Position numbers and translations under genes: made by a program
Source of the DNA: Candidatus Heimdallarchaeota archaeon
Lineage (GTDB): Archaea > Asgardarchaeota > Heimdallarchaeia > Hodarchaeales > Hodarchaeaceae
Direction: 5' to 3'
Assembly (NCBI GenBank): GCA_011364965.1
Contig: RDOB01000006.1
Span: 64,001 to 128,000, forward strand
DNA length: 64,000 nucleotides
Notes under the pieces: generated by a model
Seen by the model: only the letters and a program-made list of their open reading frames with translations
Database searches by the model: none
Told to the model about the DNA's origin: nothing
In this document: in pieces, positions 31,399-53,260 of the stretch
Numbering within the stretch: the first letter of the stretch is position 1
Layout of the letters: the number at the start of each line of letters is the position of its first letter

Positions 31399-32631
31399 TC
31401 AATTATCATTAAAAGTAAATACAGCTTTCACCATATTGTACTTATCTTTATTCATAGAATATCTAATCGCTTTTTTATATTCATTTGGAAAACGAAAACG
31501 GTGTGTGATCATCCAAGATAAGTCTAAATTATTATTACTAAGCATATGCAACGCTGTATCAAAAGCATGTTCAGATTTGGAATTGAATGTTTCCATACAA
31601 GATCCAAATGATCCCATTATATTTAATTCTCTAGCCCAAACTAATGACCAATCTATAGGAATTTTATGGGGATTACCAATTAACACAAACTTGCCTCCCG
31701 CTTTTGTCAGTCGCAAAGCATCCTCAATAGTGTTTGGTAAACCAACACATTCAAAAACAAGGTCAGCTCCCCCACCGACTAGCAAAGGTTTTTTCTCTAG
31801 AATTGGATGGTATTCTCGTAACCTTAATCTTTTTGAAAGAACGGAAAAGTAATCTTTTTCCACTTTAGTATATTCTGTAGCTCCACATTTTTCAACGGCC
31901 ATTTTTCCCCTTACTTCATTGGTATCAAGAGCAATAATCTTCGCTTTACTCCCTAATGCTCGTAAAGCTAATAAAACCATTAATCCAATAACTCCAGTTC
32001 CTATAACTAAAACTGTATCAGAATTATTAGGAAAATGTCTCATTACTGCATGCAAACCAATTGTGAATGGCTCTACCAATACTGCATTATCATCGGTAAC
32101 GTACTTAGGGACTTTATGAAGTTGCGTATGATGTGCTAAATAGGCTGAACTGAATGCCCCACCCGTAGAATTACACCATCCCGTATCGAACCCTGGTCTG
32201 ATGTTTCCCCTATCAAAGTTATTACACCTAACAAAGTCCCCATTTTTACAATTCTGACATACTGGTACAATTCCTCTTACACGACAACTCAAGATAGGAT
32301 CTAAAACTACTCGATCTCCCTCTTCCAGATGCGCAACTTCTTCGTTTACTTCTGATACTAATCCAACACTTTCATGGCCTAAAACCGATGGAAAAGAGCA
32401 AAGAGGTTCTAACAAAGGACTTTCACGAAGCAAAATAGTGTTAATATCTGAACCGCATATCCCAGTTAAAATTGGACTTACTTTTACCCATCCAGGTATC
32501 GTTTTAGGTTCTGGAATAGTGTCTAATTTAGTAGGAGAGAAAAAATTATAATAAGCGAGGGAAGATATTTTACTTAAAGCTTTTGTAGTCAAATATCTTG
32601 GAATAGAGGCGTGAAACCGAAGCGCTTGCAT
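31399..32631 (-). CDS. Zn-dependent medium-chain dehydrogenase
   Basis: GICGSD, LGHE, Cys cluster, GTGVIG. Confidence 0.88.
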   Translation of the reverse strand: MQALRFHASIPRYLTTKALSKISSLAYYNFFSPTKLDTIPEPKTIPGWVKVSPILTGICGSDINTILLRESPLLEPLCSFPSVLGHESVGLVSEVNEEVAHLEEGDRVVLDPILSCRVRGIVPVCQNCKNGDFVRCNNFDRGNIRPGFDTGWCNSTGGAFSSAYLAHHTQLHKVPKYVTDDNAVLVEPFTIGLHAVMRHFPNNSDTVLVIGTGVIGLMVLLALRALGSKAKIIALDTNEVRGKMAVEKCGATEYTKVEKDYFSVLSKRLRLREYHPILEKKPLLVGGGADLVFECVGLPNTIEDALRLTKAGGKFVLIGNPHKIPIDWSLVWARELNIMGSFGSCMETFNSKSEHAFDTALHMLSNNNLDLSWMITHRFRFPNEYKKAIRYSMNKDKYNMVKAVFTFNDN

Positions 32632-35679: not shown

Positions 35680-36978
35680 GTGAGTACCAATTCCCAGCAA
35701 AAAAGTCGGATTCTAAATTTTCTGCCATTTAAATACCCTAATTTTGGAAAGTTATTCTTCGGACAACTGATTTCAAACATTGGCTCTCAATTTTCATATA
35801 TAGCACTACAATTCCTTGTATATGATTTAACAGGGGAAATAGGTGCTATGGCCTTGCTAGCAATATCAGAAACAATTCCGATGATTCTAATTGGTCCATT
35901 CGCAGGAATTATTATAGATCGAGTTGATCGCAAATATGCAATGATATTTGCAAATTTATCCCAATCTATTATAATTGGCTTAATCCCATTTACAGCATTT
36001 CTCCCCAACCGAATATTTTGGGTTTTTCTTCTAGCTTTTCTCAATTCTACTTGTAATAGATTTTTTTTCCCTGCACGAGGAGCATCTATACCCAAATTAA
36101 TAGATAAAAAAGAAGATTTATTTGCTGCGAATTCACTGAGCGCAGGAGCGTATCAGGTATCAGCTTTAATCGGTCCAATGCTAGCTGGCATCAGTTTAGG
36201 ATTTATCGGTTATGATCTCCCTTTTATATTTGACTCTATCTCCTTTATTATTTCTGCTGTATTTATTTTCTCTATACCACTGAATTTAAAAGCTGATAAA
36301 CAATCAGAGAGTAGTCCGTTAACCGATTTAATCGAAGGTGGAAATTTTATACTTCATTATGCTCCCATTCTCTATCTTCTAGTAATATTTTCTATTTTAA
36401 TGTTTGCAGGAGGAGGATCACTGATACTGATAATCCCTTATTTAGAAGAAGTATTTGGTTTCACTGAGACTGGTCCCAGAGAATTTGTATATGGAGTAAT
36501 GACTGCTATGTCTGCTTCAGTTGGAATGACAGCTGCGTTGTTATTATCTCGTAAAAAACGGCTGAATAGGCCTATATTGGTCATTACGATTTCTTTAATG
36601 ATTGCTGGTTTTATGTTAATAGGGTTTAGTCTCTCGCCCAACATTTACGTTTTAGGATTTTTTTGGATTGGTTTTGGGACAATTGAAGTTTTGGTGGGTA
36701 TACCACTGCAAACACTAGCACAAGAAACCGTTCCTGATCAATTACGAGGAAAAACATTTTCTTTTATTAATTTAAGTATCACCATTTCTCAGATTTTGGG
36801 AATGGGATTAGTTGGAATACTTGCGGAAAGTCCTTTAGGAATCCGAGGTAGTTTATTTGCCAATGGGGTTTTTTTATTAATTGCATTTGTATTTGGAGTC
36901 AACTGGATTACAAGAAAAAGACTAGATGCACAAGCTGAAGAGAAGCGAGTTCTTTTTCACCAATCATCGGGTGAATAA
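35680..36978 (+). CDS. MFS transporter (DHA3/macrolide efflux-like)
   Basis: GQLISNIG, GIIIDRVDRK, about 12 TM. Confidence 0.88.
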   Translation: MSTNSQQKSRILNFLPFKYPNFGKLFFGQLISNIGSQFSYIALQFLVYDLTGEIGAMALLAISETIPMILIGPFAGIIIDRVDRKYAMIFANLSQSIIIGLIPFTAFLPNRIFWVFLLAFLNSTCNRFFFPARGASIPKLIDKKEDLFAANSLSAGAYQVSALIGPMLAGISLGFIGYDLPFIFDSISFIISAVFIFSIPLNLKADKQSESSPLTDLIEGGNFILHYAPILYLLVIFSILMFAGGGSLILIIPYLEEVFGFTETGPREFVYGVMTAMSASVGMTAALLLSRKKRLNRPILVITISLMIAGFMLIGFSLSPNIYVLGFFWIGFGTIEVLVGIPLQTLAQETVPDQLRGKTFSFINLSITISQILGMGLVGILAESPLGIRGSLFANGVFLLIAFVFGVNWITRKRLDAQAEEKRVLFHQSSGE

Positions 36979-38559
36979 TTATGAAACCTGTTCAATTTTA
37001 GCATCGGTTAGTTTCGCATATTCTTGGACTTTTTCCTCTTCGCTTGTACCTTTTAAAACCAATACATATTCTATGCAACCTCGTGCTCGTTCTCGTCTTT
37101 GAGTCATATCATCGAGGTTACTAGTTATATCTAGATGTATGACCACGTCAGCAGCATCTAAGTTGAGACCACGTCCCCCTACTGGAGTGAAAATAAGTAC
37201 ATTTGTATCTTGGTTCTGAAATTGATCTAATATTATCCGTCTGGAATCCTCTGGAGTTTTACCTGTCAAATACCTTACTCCAGGAAAACCTAGAGCTTTT
37301 GTAAGAAGCATATTTGTTTGTTCCCCCAAAGCAATATACCTTGTAAATAAAATTACTTTTGCTCCACGTATTAGATGTTCATGAATAAGATCTATCGCTA
37401 TATCAACTTTTGGATTAATCAAACCTCTCATTGTAGTTTCTTCAGGTTTGTCATAGCGCGGAAGTTCTGATCGATGTGAAATAATAACTGAAGCTAGATC
37501 AAGGAAGTTCTGAAATAGTTCTACGTTTTCATCAGCTTTAATATATTTCAAGAATTCTCCTGGAGTCGAATCGAGGAGTAATAGTCTAGCATGGGTTAAT
37601 TTAAAGAGTTGGACAAAAGCACTTATTAGTTGTTCACGGGATTCATTATCCTGTACGGTGTATTTTGCAATCCGAATCGGAAAGTTCATTTGTGGATCTT
37701 GAAGACGATCTAATACCCCTCCATATGATAATTTAATGATTTCAAGACGAGTGAGGGCTGGATCAAGGATTTCTTGGATAGTACCGATCGGTTTTGTAAG
37801 AGTAGAAGAAATCAGCTGGTCAATTTGACGGTAATCCTCTCGATTAATTTCCCTGATTTGAGTTAAGACTTCATAGGGACTAAGATCAGGTCTTTGCATA
37901 ATATGTGTTCCTTCTCCCAGAATTTTAGCGATATTTTCTACTCGGAATGGATCTCGTGAACCAGTCATTGCTAGAATTGGAAAGTTTCCTAATTGAGATC
38001 TTACAGAAAATAGTTCTTCAAAGAATTTAGACAGCCGAAAACCTGTCATGGATCGAGCGAGTAAATCAGTTGCCTCATCAATACATACTAAATCAATTGC
38101 CTTCAAAATGTCAACATTTAAACGAGATTTTATTTGAAAACGATCATTCATTAGACTAGTAATCGGTGTAAAGATGGCGGTTGATGCAGTATACATTTTT
38201 GTTTTTTGAGCCAATCCCAATCCTTTTCCCCCGGATCTTGGGTCAAAAATATAACCCAGTTGATCAATAAACCCAAATTTCTTTGCCATATCAAGTGCCT
38301 GTCTACATCGAAGTGCTGCAGCTTCTCGAGCTGAGGTGAAGATAAATTTGGCTTTTGGATTGGTTTTTCGGAGATATAGAAATGTTAATAAAGCGATAAT
38401 TGTTTTTCCAGTGCCATATGGATAATTTAATAAAACTGACTGGGGAATTTGACTTACTATTTCTTTAGTGGCTGTAATTTGGTATTCCCTATTATCTATG
38501 GTGAGTCCATGAACTATCTCTGAAAAATCTAACTTGTTTGCCATTATCGCCAAGCTCAA
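36979..38559 (-). CDS. Hef/FANCM-like SF2 helicase lacking a nuclease domain, divergent motifs
   Basis: REYQ, YPYGTGKT, DEAT, MTGS, NPKV, ILFTRY, VGGRGLNL, QRRERAR. Confidence 0.75.
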   Translation of the reverse strand: MSLAIMANKLDFSEIVHGLTIDNREYQITATKEIVSQIPQSVLLNYPYGTGKTIIALLTFLYLRKTNPKAKFIFTSAREAAALRCRQALDMAKKFGFIDQLGYIFDPRSGGKGLGLAQKTKMYTASTAIFTPITSLMNDRFQIKSRLNVDILKAIDLVCIDEATDLLARSMTGFRLSKFFEELFSVRSQLGNFPILAMTGSRDPFRVENIAKILGEGTHIMQRPDLSPYEVLTQIREINREDYRQIDQLISSTLTKPIGTIQEILDPALTRLEIIKLSYGGVLDRLQDPQMNFPIRIAKYTVQDNESREQLISAFVQLFKLTHARLLLLDSTPGEFLKYIKADENVELFQNFLDLASVIISHRSELPRYDKPEETTMRGLINPKVDIAIDLIHEHLIRGAKVILFTRYIALGEQTNMLLTKALGFPGVRYLTGKTPEDSRRIILDQFQNQDTNVLIFTPVGGRGLNLDAADVVIHLDITSNLDDMTQRRERARGCIEYVLVLKGTSEEEKVQEYAKLTDAKIEQVS

Positions 38560-38624
38560 ATAGAATAAGAGGGAGAGCTACTTTTAAAAGCTGTGGAAAA
38601 TTATGAAAACTTTAATTTACACAA

Positions 38625-39146
38625 ATGACAAAGGAATTGGCAATGGAGAAATTAATTGCTACATTGAGAGATAGACGACTGGGAATTCAATATATTTTGA
38701 AAATGGTACCTTTAGAGATCTGGGATTGGAAACCTTCCTCTGAGATGCGTAGTACTGCTGAGTTAGCAAATCATTTAGCTTGTGCTCCATTATCTCTTCT
38801 TGAAGGAGTAAAAGGTTATCTTGGAGATGAACAAAGCTATATTAAACTTGAAGAGAATAATTTGCCATTTAATGCTCAAGGATTAGTAAAAACTTATGAT
38901 GAAGGACTAAATAAATTACTGAGTTACCTCGAGGCTCACATTGATGATGCACATGAGAAAACAATTCAATTCTTTTATCAAAAAACAAAATCTTCATTGT
39001 ATAATGAAGTATTTGGCGAAATCGGGCATGAATGGTTTCATCTTGGGCAATTGTTTACATATTTGAAGCAAAATGGGGTGAATTTGGATATGGGAGCTTA
39101 TTATGGCTATAAGGATCCTGATCCTTCTCGATATCCGAATTCTTAA
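38625..39146 (+). CDS. DinB/YfiT family protein
   Basis: WDWKP..MRS..ELANHLA; HEWFHLGQLFTYL. Confidence 0.85.
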   Translation: MTKELAMEKLIATLRDRRLGIQYILKMVPLEIWDWKPSSEMRSTAELANHLACAPLSLLEGVKGYLGDEQSYIKLEENNLPFNAQGLVKTYDEGLNKLLSYLEAHIDDAHEKTIQFFYQKTKSSLYNEVFGEIGHEWFHLGQLFTYLKQNGVNLDMGAYYGYKDPDPSRYPNS

Positions 39147-39163
39147 AATATAACCTTAAATAA

Positions 39164-40108
39164 TTAGGATTGTTTAAGTTTAAAAAAATAAAGGGGTTTC
39201 TTTTCAATCAATTTTACTCTATCTGGGTATTTCTTTAAGCAGTAATTAGCAAGTTTTTCAAAAGGAGTGCTAAATGTAACTTGAGAAAATTTGAGTAAAT
39301 AAAGGACCCTTAGGGAGGACTCAAAAAGATAGTGGGCTATTGGACTTCCCCTGTATTCTTCTTTGACATGAAGTTGCCAGATTAACGCATTTTCCTCATC
39401 TATACGTATTATAATCTGGGTAGCAATAATATCTCCCCTATGTAAACAAACTAACGAAGCTTCCTTTATTATCCCCTGATTCGGGTAATTTTGTAGTTTG
39501 TTGAGATGAATCATTACTTGATCAATAAAAGTAAATTGTGGGAAAATTAAAGCTTCTATTGTGTTATAATATCCATCCGAAATTAATTTTGCAACGGGAA
39601 GAGCATATTCTTTTCTCCAAGAATCGATCTTATAGGATTGAGGAAGTTTTACTTGGATTTCTCTAAATAATTCCGTATTCGTACTGAATTTGAATCGTAT
39701 AATCGATTCAAACTGCAAATCTTCTAAATGTGTGTTTATATCCATAGCTCCGAGACTCGGGGATAAATATCTTATTATCCTGACATTTAAATCTCTCATA
39801 AAGTCAATAGATGAGTTTAAGAGGAGTTTTACAGTTCTAGGAGATTCATATTCTGGTATAATAAATAATAAATCTATATTTCCTTCTTTATATTTTTCTC
39901 CTTCTGTATGCAAAAACGTGAATCCGATTGGAGTGCTTTTCGGCGAAATAAGGCCGATTACATATGAATTTGGATTCTTAAGTTGCTGAAGTAATTGACT
40001 TGACGCTTTAGAAGCGATTAATCCCAATTTTTTGATAATCGCATGATGATATTGGTCAAGTAGGTCGCCAAAATGCTGTTCCAGAGAAAATTCAATAGTT
40101 GAGAACAT
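39164..40108 (-). CDS. Tandem (double) GNAT-fold acetyltransferase
   Basis: IDLLFIIPEY and IWQLHVKEEYRGSPIAHYL acetyl-CoA-type motifs, one per half. Confidence 0.7.
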   Translation of the reverse strand: MFSTIEFSLEQHFGDLLDQYHHAIIKKLGLIASKASSQLLQQLKNPNSYVIGLISPKSTPIGFTFLHTEGEKYKEGNIDLLFIIPEYESPRTVKLLLNSSIDFMRDLNVRIIRYLSPSLGAMDINTHLEDLQFESIIRFKFSTNTELFREIQVKLPQSYKIDSWRKEYALPVAKLISDGYYNTIEALIFPQFTFIDQVMIHLNKLQNYPNQGIIKEASLVCLHRGDIIATQIIIRIDEENALIWQLHVKEEYRGSPIAHYLFESSLRVLYLLKFSQVTFSTPFEKLANYCLKKYPDRVKLIEKKPLYFFKLKQS

Positions 40109-40226
40109 CAGATTATTTCCTTTGATTTAAGAAATTGGGATTAGGGAAGAAATAGAAAATCAATTCATTATTTAATTAATTTATTTCCGGAATTATCGTT
40201 ATTAATGGTTTCCCTCGGAATTTCTT

Positions 40227-41066
40227 CTATGCCAAATCTAATGGAAATAGTAGATTAATCGTATTTTGAGTTAACCAGGCTCTTCCGTTGAAATAAGCTG
40301 CAATATAGGATATGTAATGAGGGATCAGAGGATAATTTTTCAGTTTTGATAGACAAGTATCCTCTGGTATGCTTATACCAATGGATGCTGTCACTGGATT
40401 GATAATATTGAATTCTAGAAATATTTCCTCTGATTCTAACCATACAAGAAGAGTCGTTAGGAAATTTTTAAGGAAAAAATAATTCCCGAGAAAATTTAAA
40501 CTATTTTGTTTAAAAATTGATGGATTAAAGGGTAGATGGAAGTTAAGATGGATTTGACTAGGATTTGGGGTAATTAATCCATCTTGGATAATCTGTATAA
40601 GAGACGTTGAGTAAATTTCAGGAGGAGAAGTTAATAGTTGAATGAAATCAGATGCTATAAGAGTTGCAACTTTCTGACGTTTGCAGGATTGTATTACTGT
40701 CCTAATCATTTCTGGAGTGTTTTGATTATTTGAAATCAGGTATGATCCTAACTCAATTGTATGCGATGCTGTCCGTAATTCATGAATTATAAGATCCATC
40801 CACGGTTTATTTCTTTCAGAATGGGAGAAATGGGTTGGATTTACAAATATAAGTTTTGGAAAGCCTGAAATTGAAGTTTGAAAGAATGTCAAGTTAGAAT
40901 TTTTGATTGTAGCCACTGGAATTGATGGTGTGGATGGATGATAACCTGAAATCATTGCAAATACCTGAGAATAGTAAAGAACTTCATCGAAATTTGAGGA
41001 AAGAATACATAGTGGATTAAAAGGCAGAGTATCCCACTGACGGAGTCCTGACTCGGAGATGATCAG
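40227..41066 (-). CDS. PAS-like + HisKA + degenerate HATPase protein (histidine pseudo-kinase/phosphotransferase-like)
   Basis: Frame open from CTG at 41066 (after GGAGGTG) through the listed ATG at 40955; PLCILSS..EVLYYSQVFAMISGY (PAS-like), IIHELRT (H-box), SIGISIPED and IAAYFNGRAW...LLFP (CA remnants). Confidence 0.6.
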   Translation of the reverse strand: MIISESGLRQWDTLPFNPLCILSSNFDEVLYYSQVFAMISGYHPSTPSIPVATIKNSNLTFFQTSISGFPKLIFVNPTHFSHSERNKPWMDLIIHELRTASHTIELGSYLISNNQNTPEMIRTVIQSCKRQKVATLIASDFIQLLTSPPEIYSTSLIQIIQDGLITPNPSQIHLNFHLPFNPSIFKQNSLNFLGNYFFLKNFLTTLLVWLESEEIFLEFNIINPVTASIGISIPEDTCLSKLKNYPLIPHYISYIAAYFNGRAWLTQNTINLLFPLDLA

Positions 41067-41273
41067 ACACCTCCCTTTAGGAATTGTGAAGTATCTTGAC
41101 AGATGATATTATTGCAACATCCTATTTGGTTACCCCCATAGGTTTTCAAAAATCCCACTTGATGGAGTCCTGACTCAGAGATAATCAAACACCTCCTTGT
41201 ATGAATTCAGAATTATCTTGACAGATAATATTATTCTTGAATTCTAACCGTTTATTGCCATAGGTTTTTAAAA
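41031..41273. repeat. Diverged tandem duplication, unit about 121 bp, two copies
   Basis: 41031-41151 vs 41152-41273 share ATCCCACT, GGAGTCCTGACTC, ACACCTCC, TATCTTGACAGAT and CCATAGGTTTT in register. Confidence 0.92.
41063..41188 (-). CDS. 41-aa chimeric mini-ORF created by the duplication
   Basis: TTG start after GGAGGTG, overlapping the upstream stop; MIISESGLHQVGFLKTYGGNQIGCCNNIICQDTSQFLKGGV; its stop overlaps the CTG start of the next gene. Confidence 0.55.
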   Translation of the reverse strand: MIISESGLHQVGFLKTYGGNQIGCCNNIICQDTSQFLKGGV

Positions 41274-41517
41274 TTGCCTCACGATTATTAATAGCTTCAA
41301 AATAGAAGTATAAATCGGTAGTTTCCCTTAAAGCAGAGAGAAACGCGGTCAGCTGTGGTTGGATATTGGTAATATCTGTCTTGAAACGGTAATGAATACC
41401 TTTTTTTTTGATATAAAAATCTTTGATGAAAGTAGGTGGGAGGATAGCTAGAAGAATTGCAGCTTCCAGTCTATCGTCCGAAACATTAGTAACTTTTATC
41501 AAGGAGTTGTTCTTCAT
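41185..41517 (-). CDS. Hypothetical small alpha/beta protein
   Basis: 110-aa ORF 10 nt downstream of the peptide gene, in operon position. Confidence 0.6.
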   Translation of the reverse strand: MKNNSLIKVTNVSDDRLEAAILLAILPPTFIKDFYIKKKGIHYRFKTDITNIQPQLTAFLSALRETTDLYFYFEAINNREAILKTYGNKRLEFKNNIICQDNSEFIQGGV

Positions 41518-41527
41518 TTTTGTCCCT

Positions 41528-41677
41528 TTAATTTCCAGTGGGTGGAGGGGGAGGAATCAGTGTAGGGTCAGCTATACCGAGAGTGGTTTGGAGGAGAAAA
41601 AGTGTAACAAGGAACACAATAGGAATTAATTTTTGAAATATAGTCTTTTTATTCCATTTAAATATGGATTCTTTCAT
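41528..41677 (-). CDS. Secreted micropeptide precursor (signal peptide + DPTLIPPPPPTGN)
   Basis: Basic N-region, hydrophobic LIPIVFLVTLFLL core, GIA cleavage-like site, 13-aa Pro-rich tail; likely start ATG 41677. Confidence 0.6.
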   Translation of the reverse strand: MKESIFKWNKKTIFQKLIPIVFLVTLFLLQTTLGIADPTLIPPPPPTGN

Positions 41678-41843
41678 GGATTTTAAAATTAGCAAATTTA
41701 AACTCACCAAATAATATTTCATTTGATGAAAATTCATTTGGTGTTTTTTTTCTAAAATGGGATAGGAAATAAAAATGACAATATCAAAATTTTTTTTTGA
41801 CGTCTAATAGGTTAGATTAAGAGAAAAACATAGGGTTACTCAG

Positions 41844-43286
41844 TTGTCAGAATTAGAATTAAAAGATTTGATTGGAAAATTAGAAGAAGATGGATCTGTT
41901 ACCAATTTCATTCAAGATTTTATGAATTATTGGAGTAAAATCCGACATGGAGCCTCTATTAATGGAAATGTGACAGGATGGAAAGACTGGGATCAAACCA
42001 TGCGAGAACTCCTTCCAATTACCGAGGAACTGCATACAAAATGGAAAAATATTTTCAAAAGAATTGATGGATATATAGACACATTTTCTTCAATTCTTCT
42101 GGAGCTAAAAGGAGGATCAATACTATTTCCAAAACAGATTATTTTTTTTGAATCTGTAAGGGAAGAAGACCTACTTGCACAATTAAAAGCTAATCCTACC
42201 CTTGAAACCCTAGAAATGGTTTTGCTTTCTTTATCTAGTGGTTTTAATCTTAAATTACGTAAGAATGATCTAAGAATTGTTCAAAAAATAGCAAATCCAA
42301 GATTTTCCAAATCTTTAGATCATTTTCCAAAACATAAGGAACTTGCGTATTTCATTAGATCTGATGTTCGGACAGTTTCAAGCAGTCTTTCTTATTTAAT
42401 CCAGAATAATATCCTTTCAACCATTTATCTAATAGATACTGCAAGAATTGGTTATAAAACTTCAGTGTTCTATCATCTAAAATTAGATCAAGAAAAGAGT
42501 ATCTATCCACACATAATCTTATCTTTTCCCTTATCTACCGATAGAAAATTAAATGCAACTGTAGTTCAATACCCCTATAGAGGTACCAAAAAATACTCTG
42601 AGCTTCGTACTTTTTTCAACACAGATCAAATTCAATTAAATAAGGAGTATAGAGGGTGGAATTTTGCTACTCTTACCTCTTATCCTAGCAACCGTTGGAA
42701 TTATCGCCCACCATTAATTCAACCAGGGGGAAGTTGGACTAAAAGGGTTTTATCATCTAATGATGGAATTACTTTCGATTTAAACCCCGAATTTGATCCA
42801 TATGAATTAACATATCGTGAAGCAAGAATATTGGCTTATATCAGTAAATATGGAACCTTTTCTGAAACTGATCTTTCTAAACAGCTCAAAGTAACGAGAA
42901 GTTATATTACTTCTGACTGGAAAGCTCTATTAAGGAGGAAAATCATCTCTAGATTTCCAATTTTTTCTAATTTGGGTTTAGATTCATGGTTTTATATATC
43001 TATAAGAAATTTAACGCTTAACTCTATTTTGACTATGGAGGACATAATTCAACACCTAAAATTTTTCCCCTATTGTAATCTTATTTATAATGATAAGAAA
43101 GGTGATCTCCTCGGTTTAATTTGTCTACCATCGAAATGGGTTAGTTCTTTTATCTTTCAACTTTGCTACCTTCCTAAAATTGTCCCTGGATGCGCCTTTA
43201 ATTATTATATTGGCCCAGATATCCATAATCCATGGGGATTTGACATAGAGGGCACATATAATTGGGAGCTTTCAAAATCCTATTAG
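41844..43286 (+). CDS. Large transcriptional regulator with two wHTH/Lrp-AsnC-like modules
   Basis: LRKNDLRIV...HKELA...VRTVSSSLSYL...IDTARIGY and LTYREARILAYI...ETDLSKQLKVTRSYI...FSNLGL. Confidence 0.7.
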   Translation: MSELELKDLIGKLEEDGSVTNFIQDFMNYWSKIRHGASINGNVTGWKDWDQTMRELLPITEELHTKWKNIFKRIDGYIDTFSSILLELKGGSILFPKQIIFFESVREEDLLAQLKANPTLETLEMVLLSLSSGFNLKLRKNDLRIVQKIANPRFSKSLDHFPKHKELAYFIRSDVRTVSSSLSYLIQNNILSTIYLIDTARIGYKTSVFYHLKLDQEKSIYPHIILSFPLSTDRKLNATVVQYPYRGTKKYSELRTFFNTDQIQLNKEYRGWNFATLTSYPSNRWNYRPPLIQPGGSWTKRVLSSNDGITFDLNPEFDPYELTYREARILAYISKYGTFSETDLSKQLKVTRSYITSDWKALLRRKIISRFPIFSNLGLDSWFYISIRNLTLNSILTMEDIIQHLKFFPYCNLIYNDKKGDLLGLICLPSKWVSSFIFQLCYLPKIVPGCAFNYYIGPDIHNPWGFDIEGTYNWELSKSY

Positions 43287-43350
43287 CTACGAGCTAAAAA
43301 ACTAACTCTATTTCCAAAAGATAAATGAACTTTCTTTTCAGAGAGTACTT

Positions 43351-43680
43351 CTACTCATCGGTTGGTTTTTCAATTATTACAGAAATCTGTTTCCCTGTTA
43401 GTAATGAAGTCACTACTTTTTTTCGTGCAGCATCTAAGATACGCCAAAACGAGCTTCGACTTATTTTCATTCTTTCTGCAGCTTCTTCTTGAGTTAGATT
43501 TTCCTCATCTATTAATTTCAGAGCCTCGAGTTCTGCAGGCGTTAATTGTAATGTACTACCTCCTTCTATATGGTAAAAGTCGCTAGAAATTGCTGGGGTG
43601 ACTCTAGGACGACCTCCACGGAATCCACGTCCGTATCTTCCTCTTCCATGTCCTCCCCGTCCGCGTTTGAGTCTTGGCAT
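43351..43680 (-). CDS. DUF134 family HTH protein with RG-rich N-terminus
   Basis: ELEALKLID..LTQEEAAERMKISRSSFWRILDAARKKV. Confidence 0.9.
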   Translation of the reverse strand: MPRLKRGRGGHGRGRYGRGFRGGRPRVTPAISSDFYHIEGGSTLQLTPAELEALKLIDEENLTQEEAAERMKISRSSFWRILDAARKKVVTSLLTGKQISVIIEKPTDE

Positions 43681-43734
43681 AATTTATCAGTAAGTTATTT
43701 TTTATAATTTTTAAAACTTGGGTTCTTTCCGATA

Positions 43735-44916
43735 TTATTGTTCTTTCATTAGACTATCAAATAAGGCAATTAAGGAAACAATATGCCTGTGTTTGGTCTG
43801 TGGCATGATCACAAAGCGGAGGAAGTCATCTACGATTGAAGTTGTCCAACCTTGCTTCCAAAGAACATCATGAATGTAATTAACTGTGAGAGGTGAATCA
43901 AAGGGGGATTTTATCCCTAGAATATTAAGTGTAGGTTTTACTGGAATAAGAAAACCTCTTTTTCGTAATTCTTTCTCTAAGAAGAGAGTATTTTCGATAC
44001 ATTGGAGGACTGATTTTTGGTAACCTTCAAAATGAAATTTTTGCCATAAAAAAGCAAAAGAAATAGCTGAAGCGCCTGAGCGAGTTCCAGTTAATGTCTT
44101 TTGTTTCGGTATACCAGGTAAATATGGGAGTTTGAATTCGATTGCGCTAGGAAATGATGTATCGCGCCATAGCAATCCTCCTCCACCAGGCGCTACACGT
44201 CCCATTTTATGGATGTCAATGGTCATTGTACTTAATGCTTTCAAATCAAACGAGAGATTATATTTTTGTCTATCTCCTAAAAAAGGGATTATTAAGCCTC
44301 CAAATGCGGCATCAACATGAAAATCAAGGTTATATTTTAAACAGATGTCATTTATCTCTTTTAGAGGATCGATTGAACCTAATGCTGTTGTCCCTGCGAC
44401 TCCAACAAAGGCTAATGTTTTATCGGAAATAGTTTTTTTTGCCTCATGAATGTCGATTTTATATTCTGAATTCAAATTAATTTTTATGAGTTTCAAGCCA
44501 AGAAGATCACAAGCTTTATCGATAGAAATATGAACTGATCGGGGAGCTATAATTTCAGGAGCATAATTTAATTCAAGAAAGTTAGGAAATCTCCGATTTC
44601 TTATTGACCAAAGAGCGGTTATATTTGCTTCCGATCCCCCTGAAATAATTACACCTGTCCCTGTTGGAGGAAGATTGACTAATTTACCTAAAATAGTGAT
44701 TACATACGATTCAATCTCCTTAGTTCCAGAAAAAAGAGCTGGATCTCCTAAATTTCGATGGATATTTTTTGCAAAAAACTCCCGTGCAAGAGGTTCGCTA
44801 TTCATTGAACTTAAAACTTTTCCTGTTTGATACGAAAAGTCCTTTTCCAAGATTTTTGGCAGATTCAAATGCTTATCTGTCGTAGCGATCTGTTTGGGCA
44901 ATGAATTGAACTCCAT
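43735..44916 (-). CDS. mfnA: PLP-dependent tyrosine/aspartate decarboxylase (MfnA-like)
   Basis: VLSSM, NLGDPALF, SGGSEAN, HVDAAFGG, IDIHKM, GTRSG. Confidence 0.85.
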   Translation of the reverse strand: MEFNSLPKQIATTDKHLNLPKILEKDFSYQTGKVLSSMNSEPLAREFFAKNIHRNLGDPALFSGTKEIESYVITILGKLVNLPPTGTGVIISGGSEANITALWSIRNRRFPNFLELNYAPEIIAPRSVHISIDKACDLLGLKLIKINLNSEYKIDIHEAKKTISDKTLAFVGVAGTTALGSIDPLKEINDICLKYNLDFHVDAAFGGLIIPFLGDRQKYNLSFDLKALSTMTIDIHKMGRVAPGGGGLLWRDTSFPSAIEFKLPYLPGIPKQKTLTGTRSGASAISFAFLWQKFHFEGYQKSVLQCIENTLFLEKELRKRGFLIPVKPTLNILGIKSPFDSPLTVNYIHDVLWKQGWTTSIVDDFLRFVIMPQTKHRHIVSLIALFDSLMKEQ

Positions 44917-45242
44917 TCGAGGTTTAACTTAGGTACGAACGATTTTGTTAACAATGTGAAAAATCTTTATGATTTTACTTGTATACACACTATATACTGA
45001 CAAATTTAATTTTAAATATCAATCATTATCTAGGATTCTCCAATAGGGATTTGAAACACAAAAGTTACTGCTATAGAATTTCCTAAATCATTAGTTTAGT
45101 TGTCTTCTTAGAAGTTTCAGGTGAATTCTGAAGATTATAGTATTGATTAAGCTCTATGACAATAATTAGTTCCTTGACAACAACCAGTTTCTTGTTTCAA
45201 CTAGAGTTCAATCCTTTAAATCATCAAAAAAAGTAAATGGGA

Positions 45243-46019
45243 TTAATTAGACTTTCTTTTGACATCTAAAGCAAGTCTAACTAACATTCCTGCAATTATT
45301 ACTCCTGTTGCTAACAGGGCAATAATTACAACATCGTTTTGTCTATTGAACTGCTTTACTGCAATACCTATAAAAGCCCAAACAGGAACGAGAGCATATG
45401 CATAATCTCCTCTTGTAAAAGTAAGAATTAATGCAATTATTGTCGCAACAGTTATTACTAATGCAGTCCAAGTCACTTCATTTATACCAAGTCCATCCCA
45501 GTTGATAGATACGAGTAAAGCTGTAATATTAGCAACTGTGGCAACAGTTATCCAGCCTAAATAAACACTGAAAGGAATTTGAGATGTGATTTTTAATTTC
45601 CGACTTACTTTATCTAATCCGATTTCTAATCGAATATAGATTAGTATTAATGAGGCAAGAAGAATCAGCATTACTATTAATGATTCGAATAATCTCTCAT
45701 AATGCCAAAAAATAATCCAAGCTGAATTCGCAAGATTACTTATGATAAATAATATTGAGACTCTCTTAATAATATATTCATCACTATATTTCGGTACAGC
45801 TTGAAAAATCGTAAAGATAGCTAATAATATGTATATTAGTCCCCAAATGCTGAATACATATCCTGCGGGTACAAATAAGTTGGGAAACGAGTCACTGAGT
45901 TCTGCAGTTGTTTTGCCATTCAATGGAAGGATATTCGCTAAGGAATTCATTACAATAGTTAAAATAAAACTCAATATATTGCCATAAATTAAAAAGGATT
46001 TTTGTTTTATTATTGACAT
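45243..46019 (-). CDS. Tryptophan-rich sensory protein (TspO/MBR-related)
   Basis: PNLFVPAGYVFSIWGLIY, SVYLGWITVATVAN. Confidence 0.8.
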   Translation of the reverse strand: MSIIKQKSFLIYGNILSFILTIVMNSLANILPLNGKTTAELSDSFPNLFVPAGYVFSIWGLIYILLAIFTIFQAVPKYSDEYIIKRVSILFIISNLANSAWIIFWHYERLFESLIVMLILLASLILIYIRLEIGLDKVSRKLKITSQIPFSVYLGWITVATVANITALLVSINWDGLGINEVTWTALVITVATIIALILTFTRGDYAYALVPVWAFIGIAVKQFNRQNDVVIIALLATGVIIAGMLVRLALDVKRKSN

Positions 46020-46458
46020 TTATTTACACCTCGCTTGTATGTTTTCTATGGTAAATTAATTAATCCTATGGGATTCTATTATTTTAAATTTTTTTCAATT
46101 TATCCAAAGTGAAATTAACCCTACAATTTAAATTAACATTACATTGATATTGATTAATTCAATATTTTTTCTATCAAAAATGCTTTTCTCCTCTATGAAT
46201 GTAACTTTACAATCGGAATTTAATGACGAACCATGAAGAGAAATAAATGAAGACTCTTTTTTCTTTCTAATATTCCTTGATGAAGATTTAAACCATAGGT
46301 TATGTTTGTTCTTGATTCACTTTCTTTAATTTTGATATTGTATTTATCTCGGAGTATTTTTTATGGATGTAGTGCTTCTTAAAATCCTTTTCTCTAGGAA
46401 ATTTTATTTTAAAAATATTTAACCTGAAGGTATTTGAATCGTAAATAAGGGATTACTT

Positions 46459-47199
46459 ATGATTATTGAAGATAAAAAAATTTTGATAACAGGTGTGGCA
46501 ATAGGTGGGATTGGCGAGGCAATAATGAGAAAACTTTCGAATCAGAATAATAATATCCTTATTACTAGCCTAAATATGTCAAATGAACGGTTTCCTAATA
46601 TTAAGAATTTTTCAGTAGATTGTACATCTGAAGAAGGAATAAATAAGTTAAAGAAATGGATTCTAACTGAGGTTGGAGCTATCGATGTACTAATAAATGC
46701 TATAGGGGGATCACTAGCGTCTAAAAATATCTTTAAAGTCAGTGCTTCCTTTTTTAATCGTGTTTTAAGTGTGAATTTAACATCTGCTTTTCTCCTATCT
46801 AGAATAGCTCCTGAAATTATGCCTGAAGGAGGAGCTATAGTCCATATTGTTAGTTCTTCAGCATATGAACCATCAATTACGAAAATGCCCTATGGAGTAG
46901 CAAAAGCAGGATTAGTTTACCTAATCCGTTCAATGGCACAAGTATTAGCTCCTAAAATACGAATTAATGGCGTATCCCCTACCTATGTATTTACCAAACG
47001 ACATGAGGAAGAGCTGAAGAAAGAGGCTATAGATACTGGAATTCCAATTGAAGAACTAACCTCTAAACAGATTGCTAAACAACTCCTAAATTATCCATTA
47101 GTACCAGAAGATTTGAATGAGATGATAGAATTTGCAGCAACTACTAAATTAATGACTGGAAAAATCCTAGATGCATCATTGGGGCGAATTTTTTATTAA
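46459..47199 (+). CDS. SDR family oxidoreductase
   Basis: TGVAIGGIG, INAIG, YGVAK catalytic motif, RINGVSP. Confidence 0.85.
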   Translation: MIIEDKKILITGVAIGGIGEAIMRKLSNQNNNILITSLNMSNERFPNIKNFSVDCTSEEGINKLKKWILTEVGAIDVLINAIGGSLASKNIFKVSASFFNRVLSVNLTSAFLLSRIAPEIMPEGGAIVHIVSSSAYEPSITKMPYGVAKAGLVYLIRSMAQVLAPKIRINGVSPTYVFTKRHEEELKKEAIDTGIPIEELTSKQIAKQLLNYPLVPEDLNEMIEFAATTKLMTGKILDASLGRIFY

Positions 47200-47724
47200 A
47201 GTGTGAAAGGATTTTTGGAATTTATTGAGCTTTGGTGAAATCATCACACGACAGTATGTTTGTGTTTTATTCTCATTATAATAATCTTGGTGGTAATCTT
47301 CAGCTGGATAAAAGTCTTTAATTGGTGAAAGCTTAGTCACAATTGGGTTATCCCAGGATTTTAAGTCATTCAGTTCCCTTATTATCTTCTCTGCAATGGT
47401 TTTTTGTATTGGAGTATGGTAGAATATCTCAGATCGATATTGAGTACCTATATCAGGTCCTTGTTGGTTCAATTGAGTTGGATCATGAATAGAAAAGAAG
47501 ATTTCTAATATTTGACTGAAGGATATAATATCTGGATTAAAGGTAATTTGGACGACTTCTGCGTGGCCTGTTTTACCTGAACATACCTCCTCATAAGTTG
47601 GATTTTTTGTAGAACCTCCTGTATATCCGGATTCAATGCTTTCAATCCCATTCACTTGTCGGAATACAGCATCTAAACACCAAAAGCATCCTCCTGCGAG
47701 AGTAGTAATTTCTAACATTCCCAT
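47176..47724 (-). CDS. msrA: Peptide methionine sulfoxide reductase A
   Basis: GGCFWC, SGYTGG, TGHAE, HDPT, QYRS, AEDYHQDY. Confidence 0.96.
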   Translation of the reverse strand: MGMLEITTLAGGCFWCLDAVFRQVNGIESIESGYTGGSTKNPTYEEVCSGKTGHAEVVQITFNPDIISFSQILEIFFSIHDPTQLNQQGPDIGTQYRSEIFYHTPIQKTIAEKIIRELNDLKSWDNPIVTKLSPIKDFYPAEDYHQDYYNENKTQTYCRVMISPKLNKFQKSFHTLIKNSPQ

Positions 47725-47730
47725 GTGTAT

Positions 47731-49113
47731 CTATACCTCATTTAAATTCTGAAACATCATTATTGCCTGCTTTCTAGCCTTAAAATGATTTACAATTGGC
47801 CTAGGATACCCTAAATCCTTTATTGATGATTTCTCTAAATTATGGATTTCTTGAGTATCTAAGTCTCTCAATTCTGGAATATATTTTTTAATATATTCCC
47901 CTTCTGGATCGAATTTTCTTTGTTGAGTCCATGGATTAAAAATTCTGAAGTAGGGGACTGCATCGCAGCCTGTGCCACTACTCCATTGCCAATTTCCATT
48001 ATTTACGGATATATTATAGTCAATTAATCGCTGGGCAAAATATCTTTCTCCCCACTGCCAATTAATATGTAAATCTTTTGTTAAAAAGGACGCTACTATC
48101 ATACGAACACGATTATGCATGAAACCTGTTTGATTGAGTTGCCTCATTCCTGCGTCAATTATCGGAAAGCCTGTTTTTCCTTCTGTCCATAATTTAAATT
48201 TCTCTTTATCATTAAACCATTGAATTAGTCGATATTTTTCTCTGAATGAACTTTTGTATACAAAAGGGAAATGAAATCCTATATAATGATAAAAATCTCT
48301 CCAGTATAATTGTCTTAGTAACGGGATATTTCTACAATCATAGAAACGATGAAAAGTTTCTCGAATTGAAATCGTACCAAAATTTAAATGAGCAGATAGA
48401 TTCGTAGTAGATTCTTTTGCAGGAAAATCACGATCTATTTCATAGCTATCAAATTTATCGATCTTAGATAAAATCTTTAAACCAACATGCCTTCCCCCTT
48501 TGATATAAGTATGAGGGTTTGATATTAATTCATTTTTGCTATCTATAATTGCAAAATCATTGATTTTTAGAAAGTTTCCTTTTAATGGGTTTTCTTTAGG
48601 TTTTAGAACTATATTTTCAGTAGCTCTATTATAATATGGAGTAAATACAGTGTAAGGAGTGCCATCCTTTTTCAATATTGTTTCAGGCTCATTTAAAAGT
48701 AAGTCAGAGAATATTCTTAATCGTACATTTCTTTTTTGAGCCACTTCTGCTAGTAAATTGTCACGTTTTTGACTATATGGAGTGTAATCTCGATTGAGAA
48801 AAATAGAGGTAAAATTTTGTTGATGATCAGATAAAAGTCGATCTAAAATCACCCAAGGTTTTCCCTCAAATAAGAATAATTTACCTCCTACGCGTTCCAG
48901 CTGAGCTTCTAAATCCTTGATAGATTCTTGCATGAATTGTATTGCATTTTTACTTTTATTAGGACTAGTAAGAAGTAAAGAATCGTAAATAAAAACAGGT
49001 AAAACCAGATTTGAAGATTCTATTGCAGAAATTAGAGCACTATTATCATTAAGTCTTAAATCCCGCCTAAAAATAACAATAGAAGAATTATCCGAGGTTT
49101 CGTTATTCATCAT
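47731..49113 (-). CDS. phrB: Deoxyribodipyrimidine photolyase (class I photolyase/cryptochrome family)
   Basis: FRRDLRLNDN, LSAHLNFGTIS, WRDF, GKTGFPIIDAGMR, MHNRVRM, NNGNWQW. Confidence 0.93.
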   Translation of the reverse strand: MMNNETSDNSSIVIFRRDLRLNDNSALISAIESSNLVLPVFIYDSLLLTSPNKSKNAIQFMQESIKDLEAQLERVGGKLFLFEGKPWVILDRLLSDHQQNFTSIFLNRDYTPYSQKRDNLLAEVAQKRNVRLRIFSDLLLNEPETILKKDGTPYTVFTPYYNRATENIVLKPKENPLKGNFLKINDFAIIDSKNELISNPHTYIKGGRHVGLKILSKIDKFDSYEIDRDFPAKESTTNLSAHLNFGTISIRETFHRFYDCRNIPLLRQLYWRDFYHYIGFHFPFVYKSSFREKYRLIQWFNDKEKFKLWTEGKTGFPIIDAGMRQLNQTGFMHNRVRMIVASFLTKDLHINWQWGERYFAQRLIDYNISVNNGNWQWSSGTGCDAVPYFRIFNPWTQQRKFDPEGEYIKKYIPELRDLDTQEIHNLEKSSIKDLGYPRPIVNHFKARKQAIMMFQNLNEV

Positions 49114-50013
49114 CTAAATTTTCCCAATTTCAAGTAACCAATTGGCAACTTTAATAGCGCTTTGTTCTTTATCTCGTATTTCGAGCATCAGGTCAAAATC
49201 AAATTCTTCAACTTTATAGATAAACTCTTTAAATAGTTTAAGGTCAATTGAGCTGGCATGTCTTCCGATTCGTGCACTAGGTTCTTGATGACTCCAATCA
49301 ATCATAGGGATTCCATCTTCAGTATTCCAGTGATCCTGTAAAACATCTAATGATTCCACGACCGTCTCATTATTATTTTTTATTGAATGATGAAAGATGT
49401 CAAATACAACTGGAATCTCTAATTCAGTAGATATCTTTAAACAGTCTCTGTAATCAAAGGATCGGTCATCATTCTCAATCACTAATCGTTTTTTAATAAA
49501 TTCGGGTATTAGCTGAAAATTTGCAATAAATCGCTGTAGTGCCTTTTCTTTATTTCTATAAACCCCTCCCACATGAATTTGTACTTTTGCAGTTTCATCT
49601 AGGTTTAATTGCTCTAGTATCCAAGTATTCGCGTATAACTCCCTAACACTTTTCTTAACAATTTCCTCCTTAGGAGAATTTATAATTGTATATTGACCAG
49701 GGTGCATGTTAATCCTCAAAGCTAATTTTTTAATTTTTCGGCCAATTTCTATAAATAAATCCGAAAACGCATCTTCTATCTCAATCCACGGGATTGATAT
49801 GGAATGGGAAATAAAAGGGATAAAATCCGCAATTCTGTAAAAGTAAAGATGATTTTGTCCGCTAAACTCTATTGTTTTTAAAACGCATTGAAGATTGGAC
49901 TCAATTGTTTGCATAATTCTTCCTTTAGAATAGGAAGCTAAAAAAAATGATTTATCAGGTCTACAATTAATTGATGTATTTGCTGACCCAACAAATCCAA
50001 TTTTCACATGCAA
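49114..50013 (-). CDS. uvsE: UV damage repair endonuclease
   Basis: RINMHPGQY, IHVGG, LVIENDD, FDIFHH, MLEIRDKE. Confidence 0.93.
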   Translation of the reverse strand: MHVKIGFVGSANTSINCRPDKSFFLASYSKGRIMQTIESNLQCVLKTIEFSGQNHLYFYRIADFIPFISHSISIPWIEIEDAFSDLFIEIGRKIKKLALRINMHPGQYTIINSPKEEIVKKSVRELYANTWILEQLNLDETAKVQIHVGGVYRNKEKALQRFIANFQLIPEFIKKRLVIENDDRSFDYRDCLKISTELEIPVVFDIFHHSIKNNNETVVESLDVLQDHWNTEDGIPMIDWSHQEPSARIGRHASSIDLKLFKEFIYKVEEFDFDLMLEIRDKEQSAIKVANWLLEIGKI

Positions 50014-50107
50014 TTTCTCCTATTTTATTAGGTTCCTTTCTTAAAAATTGGATTTGGACTAAAATTGAATTTATTCTATTATAAAATAGATTTTCTCATC
50101 CCTTTAT

Positions 50108-50527
50108 TCACAATCCTAATTGTGTAAATATTATTCCTCCAATAACCACAGCTATTGTGATGATTAAAGCATTAATTATGGATTGGAAAATAATTTTGGT
50201 TGCTTTATTTCTATCTTTCATCTGCGATTCGTTATCTTCGATTTTTATAGTTAAGCTTAAACCACTAGAAACATTTTGTTGATGAGTAAATCCGTAAGCA
50301 GCGCAAAATTTATTTCTAGCTTGTATAAATCCGATGTTTAACATTAAAGCAGGGATAAAGATAAATATCCCTATGATTGGGTTTAATTGTATAAAATAAA
50401 TCAAACTCAAATAAGCGAAGATCGAAATTATCGTAAGAGCAAGTCCTAAATAGCCTATTCGACGCCTTTTTTCAATCTCTGCTTCTCCAATGTTACATAA
50501 TCCTGCTGTATATTGAATTTCAGACAT
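50108..50527 (-). CDS. Small membrane protein
   Basis: CNIGEAEIEKRRRIG, QARNKFCAAYG; 3 TM. Confidence 0.7.
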   Translation of the reverse strand: MSEIQYTAGLCNIGEAEIEKRRRIGYLGLALTIISIFAYLSLIYFIQLNPIIGIFIFIPALMLNIGFIQARNKFCAAYGFTHQQNVSSGLSLTIKIEDNESQMKDRNKATKIIFQSIINALIITIAVVIGGIIFTQLGL

Positions 50528-51555
50528 TATTTTACCTCGTTTCTTTTTTCTAAATAATTTTCGATTAATTTTTGTCGAATTCGACGATATTCGACTATTG
50601 GTCGATCCCCTTGGATAAGTTTTTGTCCCTGCATTTTATATACCGACTTCAAAGGGTGTTGAGTAATTACAACTCTTTTATCCTGGCCTGCAATTAATAA
50701 ATTTCCTCTCGCGCCGACTCTACCAATTATTGCACCAAGGAGAGGAATCGAAGATTTCAAATAAAACCGAAGATAGAGTAAGGTATTTTCTTCATCTATA
50801 GGAGAAAAAGCAATAAAAATTATTGTTGAATTACTTATCCTATTCATCCAGATATTAGGAAATCGAAAATATAGATATGTTTTCAGATTATCAGGAATTT
50901 CACTATATTTCAGAGGAATTGTAATTCCGTCATCTTTTACATTAAACGGTTGCACTTGGATTTCGATGAGACCATCATCTCCCTGACATTCTCTAATTCC
51001 AGGGCCATGAACCAATGTTCTATAGCCCCTACCTATAGTCCTTGAGTGTACAAAGGGGAGATGCACAACATCTAACTGATTTTCAATAACCAATGAATAA
51101 TGAACATTCCAGTGATCTATTTTTGTATAATACTTGAAATCTTTATTTAAAAGTTCCTCGAACATCGGAACAGCAGGAAGCTTCCCCTCATCCTCTGGCC
51201 ACTTACCCCAATAGATAAAAATCAGTCCACCCATCTCTCTAGTTATATAAGCCCTTTGTTTAAAGTAATGCTCGACAATAGCGTTTTTTCCTCTCGCTGG
51301 AATCACCTTCACCTCTCCAGTTTTATCATACTGAAAGCCATGAAATGGACATTCAAGGCGATGATTTATTACTTTCCCTTTTGATAGTTGAGCGCCTCGG
51401 TGGATACATTTGTCTAAAGTGCAGTGAACATCGCCATTCTGAATTCTCCAAAACACCAACTTTTCACCAAGACGGACAACTCCAATTAGTTGACCTTTTT
51501 TTACTTGTTTTGATTCTAAAACTGCATACCATTGATTAGGAATCATTTTGGACAC
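50527..51555 (-). CDS. Rieske non-heme iron oxygenase alpha subunit (VanA/KshA/PaO-like)
   Basis: CIHRG...CPFHG Rieske motif; ENQLDVVHLPFVH and QD mononuclear Fe ligands. Confidence 0.9.
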   Translation of the reverse strand: MSKMIPNQWYAVLESKQVKKGQLIGVVRLGEKLVFWRIQNGDVHCTLDKCIHRGAQLSKGKVINHRLECPFHGFQYDKTGEVKVIPARGKNAIVEHYFKQRAYITREMGGLIFIYWGKWPEDEGKLPAVPMFEELLNKDFKYYTKIDHWNVHYSLVIENQLDVVHLPFVHSRTIGRGYRTLVHGPGIRECQGDDGLIEIQVQPFNVKDDGITIPLKYSEIPDNLKTYLYFRFPNIWMNRISNSTIIFIAFSPIDEENTLLYLRFYLKSSIPLLGAIIGRVGARGNLLIAGQDKRVVITQHPLKSVYKMQGQKLIQGDRPIVEYRRIRQKLIENYLEKRNEVK

Positions 51556-51566
51556 CTATTTTAGTT

Positions 51567-52016: not shown

Positions 52017-52032
52017 TTATACTCCTCAAATT

Positions 52033-53232: not shown

Positions 53233-53260
53233 TGTCTATTTCACCATTTTTGTCCAAAAA

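Follow-up and report, generated by a model that had tools for sequence, protein, structure and literature searches.

A three-gene cassette of Hodarchaeales pairing a fused double-Lrp regulator with a small export-tagged ORF, a credible but unproven peptide-signalling device

Introduction

The RRNPP(A) receptors of Bacillota and their phages (Rap/Phr, PlcR/PapR, NprR/NprX, Rgg/SHP and AimR/AimP) share a tetratricopeptide repeat (TPR) core (PMC12700828), and in streptococci the ComRS-ComX system couples a peptide to the induction of an alternative sigma factor (PMC6211226). The DFS/QarABC quorum sensing of the archaeon Haloferax volcanii uses a two-component module and is described as small-molecule signalling (PMC12240190, PMC13464002), and no gene-encoded peptide signal in archaea was found in the literature searched. 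Archaeal activators of the Lrp family bind just upstream of the transcription factor B recognition element (BRE) and TATA box (PMC2995911). The present analysis concerns a locus of a Candidatus Heimdallarchaeota archaeon, at positions 39,164 to 43,286 of a 64,000-nucleotide stretch (hereafter the window; positions 64,001 to 128,000 of contig RDOB01000006.1, assembly GCA_011364965.1), in which the gene of a fused double-Lrp regulator lies head-to-head with a small export-tagged open reading frame (ORF), the micro-ORF.

This locus had been read, from its sequence alone, as a six-gene peptide-signalling cassette of an Asgard-like archaeon (the original prediction). The host belongs to the Hodarchaeales, in keeping with that placement, and the six ORFs, their gap sizes and their overlaps are all present as described. 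The locus contains a cassette of three genes that is real and undescribed, together with local accessories; its reading as a peptide-signalling device is credible but unproven. Literature searches found no published description of the cassette, which agrees with the earlier statement that no system of this composition was known.

Results

A conserved three-gene core

The conserved core of the locus is three genes: the fused double-Lrp regulator, a divergent signal-peptide ORF of about 50 codons whose product ends in a Pro/Gly tail, and the gene of a protein of about 110 aa (p110). This genome (G000) has four regulator copies, each with a divergent micro-ORF of like build, and a peptide profile search of the genome found no fifth peptide ORF or orphan. 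Each of the 21 further genomes from the genus has full-length regulator homologues, as do both sister-family genomes, at 1-12 per genome, and no strong full-length match was found outside the order among 400 genomes of the phylum. The micro-ORF adjoins the regulator in 58 of the 71 copies with enough flanking sequence and is represented in 23/23 Hodarchaeales genomes sampled, so that the conserved small export-tagged ORF and shared synteny on which the original prediction depended are both found. Of the 13 copies without a micro-ORF, nine belong to multi-regulator arrays in which another copy is paired. Under a strict filter, a divergent peptide ORF was found at 52 of 70 regulators; among the 1804 other genes of this genome that encode at least 200 aa, 4 had one (Fisher p ~1e-80, a value that is overstated, as the relatives are not independent). 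Two loci are rearranged (L049, 2794-2934; L055, 6207-6350), with the peptide and p110 behind the regulator on the same strand and the peptide still adjacent. The micro-ORF, its tail included, is under purifying selection, with a ratio of nonsynonymous to synonymous substitution rates (dN/dS) of 0.31 over 18 disjoint pairs (signal part 0.31; tail 0.35, p 2e-10; regulator 0.13).

Homologues of p110 number 41 in the loci, occur in 21/21 genus genomes and follow the micro-ORF in distant loci too. The constant partner of the peptide is nevertheless the regulator, because about 23 of the 58 peptide ORFs lack p110 as the next gene and eight face a convergent gene.

A profile search of 1.8 billion proteins retrieved many distant full-length relatives of the regulator. 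Six of the nine informative distant homologues, all outside the training set, are accompanied by a signal-peptide ORF whose tail is rich in proline (E 1e-43 to 1e-19). An 81-124-aa gene comes next in five of these six pairs, and the p110 profile scores in two (L194, L197); the NCBI label of the 81-aa case, Odinarchaeota, is unconfirmed. Gene callers had left two of the distant peptide ORFs uncalled (L190, L194). No divergent peptide ORF was found at three distant full-length homologues (L189, L195, L198), nor in other Asgard families beside the 527-565-aa double-Lrp-like proteins of L119-L124, which have conserved contexts. The double-Lrp architecture is widespread, and the peptide pairing seems to be concentrated in Hodarchaeales. 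Apparent decayed peptide genes, with in-frame stops or a frameshift around a GIA or DP-Pro remnant, lie upstream of the regulator in L080 and L035.

The double-Lrp regulator

The regulator comprises an N-terminal alpha/beta domain (about residues 1-135) followed by two HTH-RAM units (model predicted local distance difference test score 91), and the combination of winged helix-turn-helix (HTH) and RAM that marks the Lrp/AsnC family occurs twice per chain. The best Foldseek match of the model is NirDL (E 1e-8), followed by Lrp/AsnC regulators; the superposition on NirDL (VIA Z 13.1, rmsd 4.3, 262 aligned) extends over residues 140-470 and barely covers the N-terminal domain. Profile matches are to PH0140/AsnC, and similar long folds are present in the Atlas from Thorarchaeota and Bathyarchaeota. 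As modelled, the regulator forms an Lrp pseudo-dimer within one chain and carries an additional N-terminal domain. The confident model, Foldseek and the profiles bear out the earlier claim of a non-RRNPP regulator with two winged HTH/Lrp-like modules. The protein has no TPR Pfam match and its model is not a helical repeat, and the cassette is not an RRNPP member because the TPR core is absent. The first HTH (HTH1) is the most conserved domain, and the two recognition helices show clade-specific conservation.

The micropeptide

The micro-ORF product has a basic n-region, a 13-residue hydrophobic core, a small-residue c-region and a 13-residue proline-rich tail, 11 of whose 13 residues are identical in the closely related locus L223. 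All 58 paired micro-ORFs encode a net basic n-region and no Cys past the hydrophobic core, which is 11-14 residues long and followed by a Gly/Ala/Ser c-region, and 54 have a small-residue cleavage site. An ORF of this tripartite, signal-like make-up next to the regulator, as in 58 of 71 copies, corresponds to the adjacent export ORF of RRNPP systems. Pro-Pro is present in 37 of the 58 tails and Pro-Pro-Pro in 18, 21 tails lack Pro-Pro, and some are RAPP-like. Tail types follow the regulator clades, and tails vary among orthologues while HTH1 stays fixed. The genome encodes a signal peptidase I (matching TIGR02228, with no match to PF10502), five oligopeptide-binding proteins (SBP_bac_5) and M50 proteases.

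The reading frame allows products of 49, 55, 64 or 69 aa. The original prediction placed a 49-aa ORF at 41528-41677; the ORF stands, and its start is most likely the TTG at 41695, giving 55 aa, because the GGTGA box ahead of this codon aligns in the closest relatives. In L223 the box aligns with the point where the 55-aa orthologue begins, and ATG 41677 has no such box.

Co-folding of the regulator with the full precursor gave a score of 0.02 against a mark of 0.32, in a run in which the controls did not fold.

An operator-like motif in a paralogous clade

A 21-bp motif with the core CTAGA-N7-TCCG was found in a paralogous clade with Gly-type tails, in which, with leave-one-out scoring, it exceeds 10 bits in 25 of 30 intergenic regions against 0.3% of shuffles. 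Presence of the motif follows recognition-helix type, and the proximal motif sits 4-6 nt upstream of the TATA-like box of the regulator gene. In a genome scan, 9 of 11 sites of at least 16 bits were intergenic (one of them a training site), against at most two for column-shuffled matrices.

The site is kept at one position before one tfb paralogue in 19/19 orthologues (12 of them above 10 bits) and before a second in 7/17 (Table 1). No such site was seen ahead of the remaining tfb genes, of outgroup tfb genes or of rpoB/actin orthologues, and rpoB and actin were rejected as regulon members, their motif sites existing only in this genome. The tfb sites are also present in genome G052 (89% complete), in which no Gly-tail-type regulator was found, and another factor could bind the site instead of the Gly-tail regulator. 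The position of the sites suggests that Gly-tail regulators auto-activate and control alternative TFBs. The motif supports the family as probable sequence-specific activators and does not give the operator of the window's regulator. The best-scoring site of the genome (L125:2261-2535; G000:C2 ~31760-32034) lies between convergent genes, beside a short ORF resembling a surface-protein C-terminal remnant.

For the window's own clade, the outcome of Gibbs sampling was a TATA-like box, CATTAA. Orthologues share a GCA-N17-TGC dyad at a conserved position, but it is weak here, at 3.2 bits; most of its genome matches are inside genes, with modest enrichment.

Accessory genes

The pseudo-kinase and the tandem GNAT are optional accessories and not part of the core. 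The pseudo-kinase model matches PAS/LOV histidine kinase structures (Z 13.6, rmsd 3.8, 172 aligned) and keeps the PAS-DHp-CA shape. Its H-box HELRT is retained, as it is in 14/14 aligned members, with Arg for His in L223 and L225; the N, G1 and G2 patterns of the ATP boxes occur in 0/14 members each, and there is no HATPase_c Pfam match. The earlier description as a PAS-HisKA protein with a degenerate CA domain is thereby upheld, and the protein is catalytically degenerate. Phosphotransfer would be dispensable, since the closest relatives carry Arg in place of the His. The gene was found in 15 loci, its product lacks a membrane segment, and no cognate receiver gene is present at this locus. 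Elsewhere (L073:649-3679, L192:1365-2237, L196:1955-2428, L197:1-2359), a REC-PAS-HisKA-HATPase kinase with response regulators, or Arf/Rag-like GTPases, replace the pseudo-kinase, and many DP-type loci contain a 145-aa longin-like gene, which this locus lacks.

At this position, the GNAT is confined to this locus and the two closest relatives (L223/L224, L225; 60% identical), whereas nine orthologous cassettes abut dinB directly without it, and its distant homologues are located elsewhere. The acetyl-CoA motif-A loop of the C-terminal unit reads GSPIA in three species, compared with GKGLG/GRGLG in distant homologues. A core function as signal synthase or modifier was rejected for the GNAT, which is missing from most cassettes and has an altered motif-A loop. 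Modification of the signal, as originally proposed, is unlikely, since the gene is lineage-restricted, motif A is altered and the mature N-terminus would arise outside the cell.

p110 and the 41-aa ORF

No convincing match to p110 was found in Pfam, the Protein Data Bank (PDB; Pcc1 at E 1 only) or the Atlas, and the idea of a V4R/Bet3-like fold found no support (hhalign probability <1% against two single V4R proteins). This genome also has operons of uncharacterised 125-160-aa paralogues, together with a ~450-510-aa gene, in which the first gene is p110-like and has no regulator beside it (G000:C11:281842-285241, C11:415154-416320). Such a p110-headed paralogue operon, with no Pfam match, lies ~500 nt downstream of the peptide in one regulator clade (e.g. 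L043).

The 41-aa ORF is a by-product of the 122-nt duplication. Its last 28 residues match the p110 tail (61%, tblastn), the closest relatives have a single p110/pseudo-kinase junction, and neither the ORF nor the duplication has a match at this place in 17 other related loci. Duplication of a stop/start overlap necessarily yields a short ORF with two overlaps, and the bias between synonymous and nonsynonymous differences of the copies is not significant (p 0.06). A second signal peptide was rejected for this ORF, which has no hydrophobic core and is a duplication product. The six-gene composition of the original prediction does not hold as a unit, the 41-aa ORF being a by-product and the GNAT and pseudo-kinase optional.

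Layout of the locus and its surroundings

The coordinates of the features are listed in Table 1. On the minus strand, the micro-ORF and p110 are separated by a 10-nt gap, followed by two 4-nt stop/start overlaps (TTGA, 41185-41188; CTGA, 41063-41066) and a 118-nt gap before the GNAT. The pseudo-kinase frame has no ATG, GTG or TTG upstream of 40955 and is open from CTG 41066. The CTG start is favoured by the PAS-like signal in residues 10-90 of the longer product (Atlas), by conserved columns that reach upstream of the ATG, and by the same CTG overlap in the relative L225. The pseudo-kinase frames of L050 and L056 are open upstream of the first ATG/GTG/TTG, which suggests non-canonical starts in other species too.

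Beyond the regulator, and convergent on it, is a gene for a DUF134 HTH protein with a Gly/Arg-rich N-terminus (43351-43680, minus strand), also present in L225. At the other end, an SF2 helicase-like gene and a divergent dinB-family gene (36979-39146) mark the orthologous cassette position in ten genomes. Photolyase-like and MsrA-like ORFs lie at 45243-57726. No transcript coverage of 36000-47000 was found in four metatranscriptome contig sets of the same study.

Table 1. Features of the locus (window positions) and the tfb paralogues that carry the operator-like site
Feature	Position	Strand	Description
Double-Lrp regulator gene	41844-43286	+	Core; 480 aa, TTG start
Export-tagged micro-ORF	41528-41695	-	Core; most likely 55 aa from TTG 41695, 49 aa from ATG 41677
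GGTGA Shine-Dalgarno-like box	41704-41708	-	8 nt ahead of TTG 41695; aligns with the L223/L225 boxes
Conserved non-coding block, divergent promoter region	41759-41785		Candidate promoter/operator element; near-identical in the window, L223 and L225
p110	41185-41517	-	Core; 110 aa, fold without assignment; usual first gene past the micro-ORF
122-nt tandem duplication	41038-41281		Junction of p110 stop and pseudo-kinase start; copies 41038-41159 and 41160-41281, 76% identical
41-aa mini-ORF	41063-41188	-	Chimera of the first pseudo-kinase codons and the last ~28 codons of p110
Pseudo histidine kinase	40227-41066	-	Accessory; 279 aa from CTG; PAS-like, DHp and degenerate CA
Tandem GNAT	39164-40108	-	Accessory, lineage-restricted; PF00583 twice; altered motif A
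tfb paralogue with site	G000:C12:133886-134915 (L128, L137-L155)		CTAGA-N7-TCCG directly upstream of TATA-like box
tfb paralogue with site	G000:C9:46618-47662 (L136, L226-L241)		CTAGA-N7-TCCG directly upstream of TATA-like box

Discussion

A peptide-signalling cassette on an Lrp-type receptor

The reading proposed here is that an exported and re-imported peptide tunes the regulator, forming a peptide-signalling cassette on an Lrp-type receptor; we regard the chances for and against it as evenly balanced. The regulator, the divergent micro-ORF and p110 are inherited and duplicated together, as the loci themselves show. The regulator would bind the shared intergenic region upstream of TATA and activate in the manner of Ptr2 or LysM, as the motif geometry of the paralogous clade suggests. 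The micro-ORF product would leave the cell through Sec and undergo cleavage by the archaeal signal peptidase, freeing a predicted 13-15-residue proline-rich tail, DPTLIPPPPPTGN or two residues longer. By analogy, this tail would accumulate outside, re-enter by an Opp/Dpp-type importer, bind a cavity of the RAM or N-terminal domain and switch the regulator, with each paralogue having its own tail. p110 may be a dedicated cofactor or the first output, the pseudo-kinase and GNAT would be degenerate enzymes that joined the operon in an optional role, as modulators or outputs, and the 41-aa ORF would merely preserve translational coupling after the duplication. Binding of the tail to the regulator is proposed because each paralogue has one distinct tail, kept even where no gene follows the peptide, and because tails diversify among orthologues while HTH1 is fixed.

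Several findings weigh against this. The ligands known for Lrp proteins are amino acids or small metabolites, and peptides are not among them (PMC2995911). The CTAGA-N7-TCCG motif is missing from the DP-tail clades, that of the window included. The hydrophobic segment of the micro-ORF is stronger than that of host signal peptides or anchors (21-aa KD hydropathy 2.24 vs 1.90/1.87), nine DP-clade peptides have Pro directly after Ala at the expected cleavage point, and the tails of distant members are 30-50 residues long. The cassette has no linked gene for processing or transport, and we know of no Lrp-family protein that senses a peptide. Divergence of the tail correlates moderately with that of the regulator (rho 0.39). 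Co-variation of peptide and regulator, put forward in the original prediction as a check, was found at the level of tail classes, which follow the clades; there was no preference for RAM or for the N-terminal domain (partial r between -0.13 and 0.10, with HTH1 highest). The match of tail and clade is explained by linkage alone.

Some of the same observations suit the main rival reading, an uncleaved single-pass membrane micropeptide similar to MgrB or SafA, which a metabolite-sensing regulator would induce and which would tune a membrane partner, the regulator or a two-component system, perhaps with p110. The hydrophobicity is high enough for a stable anchor, nine members have Pro where the +1 residue is expected, which agrees with a lack of cleavage, agreement with the regulator is closer for the signal part (rho 0.63) than for the tail (0.39), and genuine kinases or response regulators follow p110 in L073, L192 and L196. 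However, the hydrophobic core is just 11-14 residues and is followed by the Gly/Ala/Ser c-region, the tail is constrained yet clade-specific, no conserved membrane partner gene is nearby and the pseudo-kinase has no membrane segment. We consider this explanation rather unlikely.

An exported peptide could also be a mere output, either a surface or matrix peptide or a signal for an unlinked membrane kinase, with a small molecule as the ligand of the regulator. This would agree with the head-to-head layout, which is common for a regulator and its target, with the lack of pocket-specific co-variation, and with the two-component module of the characterised archaeal quorum system (PMC13464002). It leaves unexplained the one distinct tail per paralogue, kept through duplication, inversion and ~80% divergence, and we consider it improbable.

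The proline runs, with 23 of the peptides having p110 within 150 nt and some resembling the RAPP type, would be expected of a leader or arrest peptide (SecM/ApdP- or MgtL-like) whose stalling controls translation of p110 and downstream genes. Monitoring substrates need more than 40 residues from the localisation signal to the arrest site (PMC7897499), whereas here the distance to the C-terminus has a median of 16.5 and a maximum of 33. No sec or yidC gene is downstream, where p110 or variable genes are found instead, and the peptides that face a convergent gene or lack Pro-Pro also argue against stalling, which is very improbable. It is scarcely credible that the 480-aa protein is a NirDL/AhbAB-type or peptide-modifying enzyme, with the micro-ORF as substrate and the GNAT tailoring it, despite the siroheme decarboxylase NirDL being the best structural match, as HxYxR, which we take to be the AhbA/B catalytic pattern, occurs in 1/67 regulator members, no genes for haem or for ribosomally synthesised and post-translationally modified peptides are nearby, the recognition helices are conserved by clade and track the DNA motif, and the GNAT is absent from most loci.

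Returning to peptide signalling, the cassette offers candidates for ligand, receptor, operator and target genes, which opens cell-cell signalling in Asgard archaea to tests that use synthetic peptides and purified proteins and need no culture. A tentative and somewhat doubtful extension is that Hodarchaeales, a lineage often placed closest to eukaryotes, independently invented gene-encoded peptide quorum sensing with double-Lrp cytoplasmic receptors for re-imported proline-rich peptides, one kind per paralogue, at least one clade switching on alternative TFBs. Should the peptide instead be an uncleaved membrane micropeptide, the cassette would still represent a new family of regulated archaeal micropeptides, often missed by gene callers.

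Comparison with known systems

Like RRNPP(A) systems, the cassette has a short export-tagged precursor beside a cytoplasmic regulator, several paralogous pairs per genome, a variable C-terminal tail and an Opp-type importer encoded in the genome. Unlike them, its putative receptor is a fused double-Lrp protein with an N-terminal domain, the host is an archaeon, p110 forms a conserved third gene, and the proline-rich tails have a greater length (10-20 aa or more).

DivL, ChpT and Spo0B combine DHp with a CA-like domain that lacks ATP-binding boxes, a composition shared by the pseudo-kinase, among whose structural matches is DivL; unlike in those proteins, the His is kept here and lost in the two closest relatives, and the locus has no receiver gene. 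NirDL/AhbAB have the same fused double-Lrp fold, but NirDL is an enzyme and has neither the N-terminal domain nor a peptide partner.

With archaeal Lrp/AsnC regulators (Ptr2, LysM, Ss-LrpB and FL11; PMC2995911) the regulator shares HTH-RAM units, probable autoregulation and, as the candidate motif of the Gly-tail clade suggests, a semi-palindromic AT-core site just upstream of TATA. It differs from them in the fusion of two units and the extra ~135-aa domain, and no described Lrp member is paired with a micropeptide. Haloferax DFS/QarABC is likewise secreted-signal control in an archaeon, but without a gene-encoded peptide or Lrp receptor.

The operator-like site that the Gly-tail clade shares between its regulator/peptide pair and tfb genes echoes ComRS-ComX (PMC6211226). 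There is no homology between the two, the site occurs only in the paralogous clade and its presumed binder is the Gly-tail regulator; if the quorum-sensing interpretation is true, the cassette would be an archaeal counterpart of ComRS-ComX.

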